Shown here: positions 45,001-48,000 of the stretch, one piece after another
Numbering within the stretch: position 1 is the stretch's first letter
Layout: every line of letters starts with the position of its first letter
Assembly (NCBI GenBank): GCA_015522145.1
Contig: WAMV01000007.1
Location: 1-64,000, forward strand
Reading direction: 5' to 3'
Length of the DNA stretch: 64,000 bases
From: Candidatus Aenigmatarchaeota archaeon
Lineage (GTDB): Archaea; Aenigmatarchaeota; Aenigmatarchaeia; CG10238-14; WAMV01
Program-made: the position numbers

Positions 45001-48000
45001 AAGCTAAGCCTTTAATCGAAATTAGAGATGCTTACGAAATTTGGAAAAGTGAAGGTGATGAAAGCATGTTAAAAGAAATTTTAATACCTATAGAGCATGC
45101 TATACCACATGTGAAAAAAGTGTTTGTTAAAGATACTGCTATAGCGCAAATATGTAATGGTGCCCCTGTTTACGCTAGTGGGCTCGTAAGAATACAAAAA
45201 GATATAAAGCCTGGTGAAATAGTCGGAATTTTTAGCTTAAAAAATGAATTGATTGCATTAGGCATAGCTAAAATGAGTGCAAAGGAAATGTACAATAAAA
45301 GTAGGGGAATTGCTGTAAGAACTGACAGGGTTATAATGAAAAAAGATGTTTACCCTGATTTCAGAAAAAAATAAAGTTTAAAAAATCAACCAAAGCAAAT
45401 TAAAATTAGTCTCAAGGTCTGATAGCAAGATGATGAGCACTGGCTTTGCATGCCCGGGTGGCGGAACCAGGCTAACGCGCCGGCCTTGAGACTACCATGA
45501 GAATGTTGGCTTGACCCTGAAAAACATGATGATAAGGAGGTGAGTCGAGAAAGCCGGTGCCCCTTACGGGGCGTGTGGGTTCAAATCCCACCCCGGGCGT
45601 AGAAATTTTAGCTATCTAAAGAAAGTTAAATTTAAATCTCGTGGAATTATATTTAATGGAAAAAATAACCTGCAGCTATTGTGGCAGAAAGTTTGATAAT
45701 GAAAATTCTTTAAAACAACATAAACAAGCCAAACACCCCAGCGAGTTCCAAAAAGAAATAGAAAACAAAATTAAAGAGCATACACAAAGAAGGCAATTAA
45801 TCAGCATAGCTAAGTATTCTGTAGCTCTTTTAATTCTAGCTATAGCAGCTTTTTACTTACCAACACTTATCCAAATTAAGTATTACCCACCAACAACTAT
45901 TGAGGGACATGTGGAAGCTTATCCTCCAGCTAGAGTTGTAAAAGAACCTATACCAGAACCTATACAAAAACATATTCTGGAGCATGTACCGACTAGCTTT
46001 GGAAACAGACCTGGCGTTCTAATACAATATAATTGTGAAAAGTTTGATTGTGCTCCTGATTTAATTGTTAAACTGGAAAACTTGACAAGATTTTATGAGT
46101 ATTTGTACGTTGCTCCCAATCCTAAGATAGATGCTAAAATTGCTCTAACAAAATTTGGACAGATATTAATTTTGGATGATTATGACGAACAAAGAATAAG
46201 GGAATTTATAGAAAGTTTTTAAGCAAATAAACTAAACTAATTTTACATGGAACATTCCCATCATGACCATGCTCATCATATGGAAGAATTTAAGAAAAAA
46301 TTCATTATAGCAACTATACTAACGATACCAGTTCTTTTACTTTCAGAAACTATACAGCTTTGGCTGGGCTTTAGCTTTCAAATTCCTTATCAAAAATATG
46401 TTGTTCTTGCTTTAAGCTCTATTATTTATTTCTACGCAGGAATGCCTTTCTTGAAAGGTAGTTATAATGAATTGAAGGCAAGACAGCCAGGCATGATGAC
46501 ACTTGTTGCAAGCGCTATAAGCGTAGCTTATTTTTACTCTGTTTTTGTTGTGTTTACTGGTAGAGGTAGGGAATTTTTCTGGGAGCTAGCAACGCTTATA
46601 GATGTGATGCTTCTAGGTCATTGGATTGAGGCTAAAAGTGTTTTAGGAGCAAGTAAAGCTTTAGAAGAATTAGCAAAGTTGATGCCAACCTACGCTCATC
46701 TAATCAAAAATGGCGAAGTTGTGGATGTAAGTGTAGAAGAGTTAAAGGTTGGTGATATAGTTTTGGTTAAGCCTGGGGAAAAAATACCTAGCGATGGTGT
46801 TATCATAGAAGGTTCTTCTTTTGTAAATGAAGCTTTACTAACTGGCGAGTCCAAACCTGTTAGCAAAAAGGAAGGTGATAAAGTTATAGCTGGTTCTATT
46901 AATGGTGAAGGAAGTTTAAAAGTTAAGGTAGAAAAAACTGGAAAGGATATTTACCTTGCCCAAGTAATGGAACTTGTTAAGCAAGCTCAGCAAAGCAAAA
47001 GCAGAACGCAAGATTTAGCTAATAAAGCAGCTTCCCTGTTGTTTTATGTTGCATTAATTTCTGGTATTATTACTTATTCTGTTTGGAGTTTCTACGGCAT
47101 GCCAGATGCAGCATTGGAAAGGACAGTAACAGTTTTAGTAATTGCATGCCCTCATGCTCTTGGCCTGGCTATTCCTCTTGTCGTTGCAATTTCTACAGCT
47201 ATAACAGCTAAGCAAGGAATACTAATAAGGAATAGAAAAGCATTTGAGGAAGTTAAGGATGTTGATGTTGTTGTTTTTGATAAAACTGGTACGCTAACTC
47301 TTGGAGAGCTAGAAGTTAGCGATGTCTGGAGTAAGATTGATGAGAAAGAATTGCTTAGCTATGCTGCAAGCCTAGAAGTTCATTCTGAGCATATTATCGG
47401 AAGGGCAATAGTTGATTATGCTAAGAAAAAAGGCATAGAAATTAAACAAGTTAATGAATTTAAAGCCATTCCTGGAAAGGGAGTCTTTGGCATCATAGAT
47501 GGTAAAGAGATTTATGTGGGAAGTGAGGAATTGTTAAAAGACCTGGAGCTCCAAGAAACAAACGAAAAAATAAAAGAATGGCAGAGCAAAGGAAAATCTA
47601 TAATTTTTGTTGTTGTTAATAAAGAAGTAGTTGGGGCATTTGCTTTGGAAGACAAAATAAGAGAAGAGTCTTTGCAAGCAGTTGAAAAACTTAAGGAAAT
47701 AGGAATAAAAGTTTACATGATAACAGGAGATGCTGAGGAAGTTGCTAAAGATGTGGCTACAAGGCTAGGAATAGACAATTTCTTCGCTAGAGTATTACCA
47801 GATCAAAAAGCAAACAAAATAAAAGAACTTCAAGAAAAAGGCTATAAAGTTGCCATGGTTGGTGATGGTATAAATGATGCTCCAGCCTTAATGCAGGCTG
47901 ATGTTGGTATAGCTATTGGCGCTGGCACAGATGTGGCTATAGAAAGTGCCGACATAATATTAGTAAGAAATAATCCTCTGGATGTTGTTAAAATAATTAA

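Follow-up and report, generated by a model that had tools for sequence, protein, structure and literature searches.

The tRNA-Ser(UGA) locus and its intron

The window analysed here is a stretch of 64,000 nucleotides from a Candidatus Aenigmatarchaeota archaeon (contig WAMV01000007.1, positions 1 to 64,000). Its genome, referred to below as G000, is represented by a 323-kb assembly that is 81% complete. In the window, a Cbf5/TruB gene (44418-45374) lies directly upstream of a tRNA unit that begins right past its stop codon. The element at 45377-45384 is presumably a TATA box, a role assigned from archaeal promoter geometry. An Rfam search places a tRNA with a 61-nt anticodon insert at 45452-45599, and ARAGORN reports tRNA-Ser(tga) once 45491-45551 has been excised in silico; run without its intron search, ARAGORN did not call a tRNA at 45452-45599. 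The first-pass annotation had given the range 45488-45550, which is slightly off. The features of the locus, with their basis in brackets, are as follows.

45377..45384, forward strand: probable archaeal TATA box TTTAAAAA, directly 3' of the cbf5 stop (read from the sequence)
45408..45436, forward strand: predicted guide in the 5' leader, directed at U34 of the precursor itself, with antisense 45408-45417, D' 45419-45422 and C' 45430-45436 (reverse complement)
45452..45490, forward strand: tRNA-Ser(UGA) 5' exon, ending at G37 (Rfam, ARAGORN on the spliced form)
45485..45488, forward strand: 5' strand of the BHB central helix, C32-G35, with its partner at 45546-45549 (read from the sequence)
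45491..45551, forward strand: anticodon-loop (37/38) intron of 61 nt, an sR13-type C/D sRNA (Rfam insert, sequence model)
45497..45503, forward strand: box C, ATGAGAA (read from the sequence)
45505..45515, forward strand: D' guide GTTGGCTTGAC, antisense to 16S 1405-1415, N+5 = A1408 (pairing with relatives' 16S; PMC5389701)
45517..45520, forward strand: box D', CTGA (read from the sequence)
45526..45532, forward strand: box C', ATGATGA (read from the sequence)
45533..45543, forward strand: D guide TAAGGAGGTGA, antisense to the 16S 3' end including the anti-Shine-Dalgarno, N+5 = C1535 (relatives' 16S)
45545..45548, forward strand: box D, TCGA (read from the sequence, C/D covariation)
45552..45599, forward strand: tRNA-Ser(UGA) 3' exon, beginning at A38 (Rfam, ARAGORN on the spliced form)

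The splice motif, read by hand, consists of a 4-bp central helix (C32-G35 with 45546-45549), a clean 3' bulge (AA^A) and a relaxed 5' side, where the bulge is not a clean 3-nt one. With this relaxation, the intron has the central helix and bulges of a BHB intron, and its removal restores the host RNA. The central helices of tRNA-hosted copies often have only two or three of four base pairs (10 of the 20 copies that our script parsed, out of 34 sR13 copies and with G000 outside the 20). Box D overlaps the 3' strand of the central helix (45546-45549); as it sits within the splice motif of the precursor, it would be freed only by splicing.

A two-guide C/D sRNA of the sR13 family

The first-pass annotation described the intron as a complete C-D'-C'-D sRNA, and this is borne out: four boxes and two guides are located within 45491-45551. 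As in archaeal C/D RNAs, boxes C, D', C' and D follow in order within 50-60 nt, with C and D departing from the consensus. The two remain complementary in the way that a K-turn needs, as had been claimed, with G5-C2 and A6-U1 in G000 (tandem GA, stem II). Across the family, position 6 of box C and position 1 of box D are Watson-Crick in 70 of 74 copies (A-U 51, G-C 17), compared with a mean of 42 and a maximum of 55 in shuffled controls, and kin among the 74 copies are not independent. The box D variants in the order's intron-hosted copies (TTGA, TCGA and CCGA) are accompanied by a compensating box C. No Rfam C/D family was found over the intron, neither at the gathering score nor at E-values up to 5.

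Both guides form at least nine antisense pairs with relatives' 16S, with a Watson-Crick pair at N+5. They match 16S and not the host tRNA, so the self-guiding arrangement of the tRNA-Trp type is not found here. The intron thereby shows the pair of guides that marks the sR13 family, a D' guide to 16S 1405-1415 and, in the same RNA, a D guide to the 3' end of 16S. The statement that both guides are kept among relatives stands for the order generally and needs qualification at its edges: genome G103 has a divergent second guide, and 5 of 84 parsed copies, all five from genus g46, are without the GA of box D.

Targets in 16S rRNA

No rRNA words are present in the G000 assembly (323 kb, 81% complete), and targets were therefore taken from the 16S of relatives. 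Target numbering follows PMC5389701. The D' guide forms 11 contiguous pairs with one relative's 16S, placing N+5 at A1408 in helix 44, and 11 pairs with 46 of 67 relatives' 16S ends. The D guide forms 10 Watson-Crick pairs with one relative's 16S, with N+5 at C1535. Both targets had been named before. The aim at A1408 is upheld by pairing and covariation; for the second guide, the pairing with the anti-Shine-Dalgarno end holds, and its target is refined to C1535 here, A1534 being that of Nanoarchaeum equitans. The register of the D guide varies: N+5 falls at 1533 in five free-standing copies, at 1534 in the one from N. equitans and at 1535 here.

Matches of 8-13 pairs with many G-U also arise by chance in the same target scan, so covariation is a stronger test than pairing. 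Among 60 genomes with both the sRNA and 16S, all five with A1410 have a TTTGAC guide, and 50 of the 55 with G1410 have a CTTGAC guide, the rest being four wobble pairs and one bulge. The guide of G103 fits the C1409 of its genus, seen in three congeners. In G107, which has C1410 and has lost the anti-Shine-Dalgarno, both guides pair with its own changed 16S. These comparisons support the view that the guides track changes in their targets, even where the anti-Shine-Dalgarno is lost, and suggest that the RNA would act in trans on 16S rRNA. Loss of the anti-Shine-Dalgarno at the 16S 3' end was seen in genera g44 and g45 (L239, L240, L243, L248).

Guides in the leader and in other tRNA genes

The segment 45408-45417 in the 5' leader is the exact reverse complement of 45484-45493. 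This leader guide is present in 26 relatives inspected and covaries with the first intron bases, and on these grounds we read it as directed at U34 of the unspliced tRNA-Ser(UGA) precursor. The 11 nt that lie 3' of its box C' (45437-45447) are antisense to the 3' splice junction and are followed by no clear box D. The placement of the U34 self-guide differs by lineage: the leader, the 37/38 intron or a second small intron. In genus g46, where sR13 is in the 16S gene, the self-guide lies inside the tRNA-Ser(UGA) intron.

Other tRNA genes of G000 also carry guides. The 58-nt intron of tRNA-Ser(GGA) (1764-1907, reverse strand) is likewise a four-box C/D RNA, whose D guide has a candidate 16S site with nine pairs and eight pairs in the 23S 2439 region when compared with relatives. 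The introns of tRNA-Thr(UGU) (C11:3257-3385) and tRNA-Gly(UCC) (C10:15513-15640) have C/D boxes and guides that are not on their own anticodon. Six further introns (Leu-CAA, Lys-UUU, Arg-UCU, Glu-UUC, Met-CAU and Trp-CCA) are self-guiding hairpins whose N+5 falls on position 34. The self-guide tRNA genes are found on contigs C3, C5, C8, C10, C11 and C19.

Distribution of hosts

A sequence model of the sRNA core matched 84 of the 118 genomes of the Aenigmatarchaeota order to which the window belongs; five matches were set aside, and 79 genomes were accepted as having true copies. Four of the matches were rejected as two coding sequences, one leader self-guide and one other sRNA; G064 (one model match) and seven weak second matches are also outside the count of 79. 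The host is the tRNA-Ser(UGA) intron in 36 copies, including that of G000, and a 16S intron in 43. A search with the guide, D' and C' as a pattern matched 42 of the 118 genomes, with none for the reversed control, and of 30 pattern loci inspected 9 were in tRNA-Ser(UGA) and 21 in 16S. The earlier counts (53 of 118 genomes; 14 tRNA, 15 16S and 1 chance locus) belong to a different pattern, and ours did not reproduce them.

The tRNA gene and the 16S end are both readable in 45 genomes, not counting G037 and G054, which have too little 16S assembled, and exactly one host is used in 43 of these: the tRNA in 19 and 16S in 24. Together with the 36 and 43 copies above, this supports the host switch between tRNA-Ser(UGA) and 16S that had been proposed. 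The exceptions are G014, with both hosts, and G012 (70% complete), with neither; the short 16S contig of G014 groups with another family on the 16S tree. Nine of the single-host genomes carry both loci on one contig. Genus g17 includes both hosts, and genus g30 uses three 16S sites. In G038, whose sR13 is in 16S at 1492/3, the tRNA-Ser(UGA) intron (L134) is a different complete C/D sRNA, which indicates from sequence that this intron slot has swapped its cargo. Probable foreign contigs were noted in four bins (G014 C31, G029 C66, G084 C29 and G102 C3), on the basis of 16S or tRNA loci that are identical or closest to those of other genera.

Outside the order, the A1408 guide with D' and C' occurs in 22 of the 253 other genomes of the phylum, and the reversed control gives none. 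One of these (G146) is a 16S copy. We fetched 20 of the other 21, and in all 20 the host is the tRNA-Ser(UGA) anticodon intron, without an anti-Shine-Dalgarno guide. These tRNA-hosted copies mostly have a conserved GCGG between D' and C'. The G(G)CGG in the D'-C' loop of L261-L280 complements 16S CCGCC (about 1399-1403), just upstream of the A1408 target; an extra pairing, or a link to Cm1402, is possible.

A scan across GTDB gave 87 matches: 13 in tRNA-Ser(UGA), 40 in 16S, 6 free-standing and 28 due to chance, the last having no tRNA or 16S context, no box C and no guide extension. The six free-standing copies are from N. equitans, two Undinarchaeota, two Altiarchaeota and one unclassified archaeon.

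Introns of the 16S gene that carry the sRNA

The 45 fully inspected 16S inserts, which include suspect and out-of-order rows, lie at four sites near the 3' end: 1492/3 (12), 1499/1500 (11), 1513/4 (21) and 1520/1 (1), counted along E. coli numbering. BHB geometry is present in all 45, with four of four central-helix pairs in 40 and three of four in 5. The first-pass annotation had spoken of four or more sites, and these four are real. Introns that lack sR13 also occupy the same sites, with LAGLIDADG genes at two of them.

The core of the sRNA is equally conserved within and between sites (identity 0.79), whereas the outer stems are bound to the site (0.64 within and 0.47 between). At 1499/1500, the stems of introns without sR13 resemble those of sR13 introns (0.62-0.78, against 0.43-0.56), which suggests that the cassette entered resident introns there. 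This likeness was not seen at the other three sites, and a general model of resident introns whose loop is exchanged for the cassette held at 1499/1500 only. Because each central helix must fit its own exon, simple reverse splicing of a circular tRNA intron into 16S would not work. G035 and G077, from different genera with exons 90% alike, have site-1513/4 introns that are 89% identical, and those of the congeners G077 and G079 are 67% identical; the former is a sign of lateral spread.

Introns at 1513/4 (e.g. L014, L016, L169 and L215) share a conserved internal loop two bases away from the stem beneath the sRNA; its 5' side reads CCTAA and its 3' side CCAA. Genus g46 (L216, L091, L090) has a second boxed intron near 16S 1501, with a D'/C'-like loop.

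Probable direction of the host changes

In families f1, f3 and f4 all copies are tRNA-hosted, and with the 20 of 20 loci from other orders this makes the tRNA intron the likely older host. The tRNA host is probably ancestral, and the 16S hosts were probably derived more than once. G076, which is 16S-hosted, keeps a 27-nt tRNA intron in which box C is joined to box D and the core is deleted; as far as sequence can tell, this relic is a direct sign of one replacement of the tRNA host by 16S. A 16S form at 1492/3 was found in G243, of another order, on an 875-kb contig.

For a 16S tree, 68 rows were reduced to 42 by leaving out 17 with fewer than 450 aligned bases and 9 whose host was unknown or whose contig was suspected to be foreign. 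On this tree, which has 13 open forks and 9 rows under half filled, the tRNA-versus-16S host requires seven changes, three of them forced by starred branches, and five host states need 17 changes. A single clade is rejected both for tRNA hosts (p-AU 1e-7) and for site-1513/4 hosts (p-AU 9e-116).

Machinery and RNA data

G000 encodes the splicing endonuclease (EndA, in the C1:5902-6180 region), L7Ae and RtcB. Fibrillarin and Nop5 were not found in its assembly (81% complete), the weak match to the former being another methyltransferase; fibrillarin is present in 111 of the 118 genomes of the order and in all 34 near-complete ones. A search of public RNA runs with a relative's 16S end (L165) returned 24 runs, none with a share above 0.17, and in the four that we checked the reads lie over conserved exon words, with none over the intron, which makes these runs uninformative.

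Proposed mechanism and alternative explanations

The reading that we favour is as follows. The leader guide and tRNA-Ser(UGA) would be transcribed together, the tRNA's intron being an sR13-type C/D sRNA. Cutting of the relaxed BHB by the splicing endonuclease and ligation by RtcB would set the 61-nt intron free, probably in circular form, and release box D from the central helix of the precursor. With L7Ae, Nop5 and fibrillarin, the excised intron would then act in trans on 16S rRNA, directing 2'-O-methylation to A1408 in the decoding site and to C1535 at the anti-Shine-Dalgarno end. A free-standing guide, such as that of N. equitans, Undinarchaeota and Altiarchaeota, may have been captured early in Aenigmatarchaeota by the intron of tRNA-Ser(UGA). 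In the order of the window, BHB introns close to the 3' end of 16S would have received the cassette from box C to box D on several occasions, after which the tRNA copy would have been lost, one copy per genome being kept. For this reading as a whole, we estimate a probability of roughly 0.8.

Chimeric bins could give the appearance of two hosts, and GGAGGTGA could be a mere Shine-Dalgarno-like word, but we consider such an artefact very improbable. Foreign 16S contigs do occur in several bins (G014, G029 and G084); the nine genomes with both loci on one contig and the empty reversed controls speak against this being the cause, and the second guide of G107 is not Shine-Dalgarno-like and pairs with its own changed 16S end. 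As the guides of G107 match an altered 16S without an anti-Shine-Dalgarno, a mere Shine-Dalgarno-like word is ruled out. A live possibility, short of an even chance, is that the patchy hosts stem mostly from one or two captures by 16S and not from many separate tRNA-to-16S moves; hopping between sites and a lateral spread of intron-bearing 16S ends, through homing or recombination, would have come afterwards. The LAGLIDADG genes at two of the same sites, the intron shared across genera by G035 and G077 beyond the likeness of the congeners, the 16S form in two genomes of other orders (G146 and G243) and the equal identity of the core within and between sites all fit this history. Even so, the tRNA copy must still be lost in each recipient, as observed, and the relic in G076 marks one direct tRNA-to-16S replacement; the number of captures is not countable from these data.

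A somewhat unlikely alternative, compatible with the mechanism that we favour, accepts the guide as real and makes its main job at the 3' end the holding of helix 44/45 and the anti-Shine-Dalgarno during 30S assembly, as an RNA checkpoint in place of RsmA/KsgA; the D guide would then direct little or no methylation. An RsmA match occurs in 1 of the 118 genomes of the order, against 159 of 253 elsewhere in the phylum, and the D guide is retained although its N+5 register drifts (1533, 1534 or 1535) and box D decays in g46. The same function was proposed for N. equitans sR13 in PMC5389701, but so was a measured Am1534 reported there, and stem II of boxes C and D covaries. The order also counts as about one event, and among the 21 other-order genomes whose copy has the A1408 guide alone, 11 gave no RsmA match, so RsmA can be lost without the second guide.

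We also considered what this arrangement could mean, in a joint reading that is speculative and on balance unlikely: an essential guide would be an intron cargo that preserves its BHB intron, replaces the homing-endonuclease gene and couples 16S splicing to a 30S checkpoint. If this were true, a BHB intron holding the sole sR13 copy could not be lost, and the cassette could take the place of a homing-endonuclease gene in an intron loop. In 16S-hosted species, each pre-16S would release one guide, directed to the decoding site and to the anti-Shine-Dalgarno that flank its own splice site, giving an RNA-only checkpoint in a lineage without RsmA/KsgA. Whatever its function, an rRNA guide whose targets were measured in another archaeon appears to be intron-borne across a whole phylum, swapping tRNA and rRNA hosts under a strict one-copy bookkeeping. 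Small archaeal introns would thereby gain a job, archaea would have their own parallel to snoRNAs hosted in introns, and two old questions become testable: what makes BHB introns persist, and by what route introns and their cargo move. For annotation, a tRNA of this kind is missed by ARAGORN without intron search, and introns interrupt the 16S 1492 primer region.

Comparison with known systems

The closest counterpart is sR13 of N. equitans. Our free-standing copy L052 is its sRNA13 (318915-318968, Supplement 2 of PMC3491384; Randau 2012). According to Seistrup et al. 2017 (PMC5389701), Am1408, Am1409 and Am1534 were measured in N. equitans, 1408 and 1534 were assigned to sR13, and this free-standing sRNA is expressed and was proposed to substitute, as an RNA, for the RsmA that is missing there. 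The two RNAs share both guides, their order, the box layout, the length, the targets at 16S 1405-1415 and 1531-1540, and a host lineage without RsmA. They differ in that the N. equitans RNA is free-standing between two protein genes, with a canonical box D (CTGA) and N+5 at A1534, whereas here it is an intron of tRNA or 16S, with TTGA, TCGA or CCGA as box D, a compensating box C and N+5 at C1535. We therefore regard the intron sRNA, as judged from these features, as a counterpart of N. equitans sR13 and not a new sRNA; over 55 nt, both descent and convergence are possible.

Intron-borne archaeal guides have been described, in the parts of the literature that concern them, for tRNA-Trp, acting on its own tRNA, and as an untargeted RNA in N. 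equitans tRNA-Met (PMC7994747, PMC11408192, PMC7714728, PMC6009581, PMC4644070, PMC12558985). The sR50 pre-tRNA-Trp intron of Haloferax and Pyrococcus is likewise a tRNA BHB intron that is a C/D sRNA acting after excision, as would be the case here (PMC7994747, PMC11408192, PMC7714728); as described in the sections on it, sR50 methylates its own host tRNA (C34 and U39), whereas here the aim is rRNA and the U34 guide is in the 5' leader. The RNA from the tRNA-Met intron of N. equitans is also a C/D-boxed tRNA intron of a DPANN archaeon; it is stable, with no target predicted in the table of PMC3491384 and no rRNA aim shown there. In the mainly open-access literature, we found no archaeal tRNA or rRNA intron reported to hold an rRNA guide. 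The BHB introns of archaeal rRNA, whether or not they carry LAGLIDADG genes, share the splice motif and, as far as their descriptions go, two insertion points of introns with homing-endonuclease genes (PMC3608112, PMC6125680), and non-coding RNA cargo of such introns is raised as an open question in PMC3608112. Here, the cargo differs from that of the known introns in being a guide RNA for the host rRNA.

Eukaryotic snoRNAs are hosted by spliceosomal introns of mRNA-like genes, whereas the hosts here are endonuclease-cut BHB introns of tRNA and rRNA. The likeness to them, an rRNA guide released from an intron, an unrelated host and host switching, is one of analogy and not of membership (PMC7994747, in its account of such snoRNAs). 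The guide family and its targets are already known from N. equitans, a precedent that the first-pass annotation did not mention, and intron hosting is the part for which we found no earlier report. What we describe thus appears to be a known kind of sRNA in a new, mobile genomic arrangement, a view that is well supported by comparative evidence.
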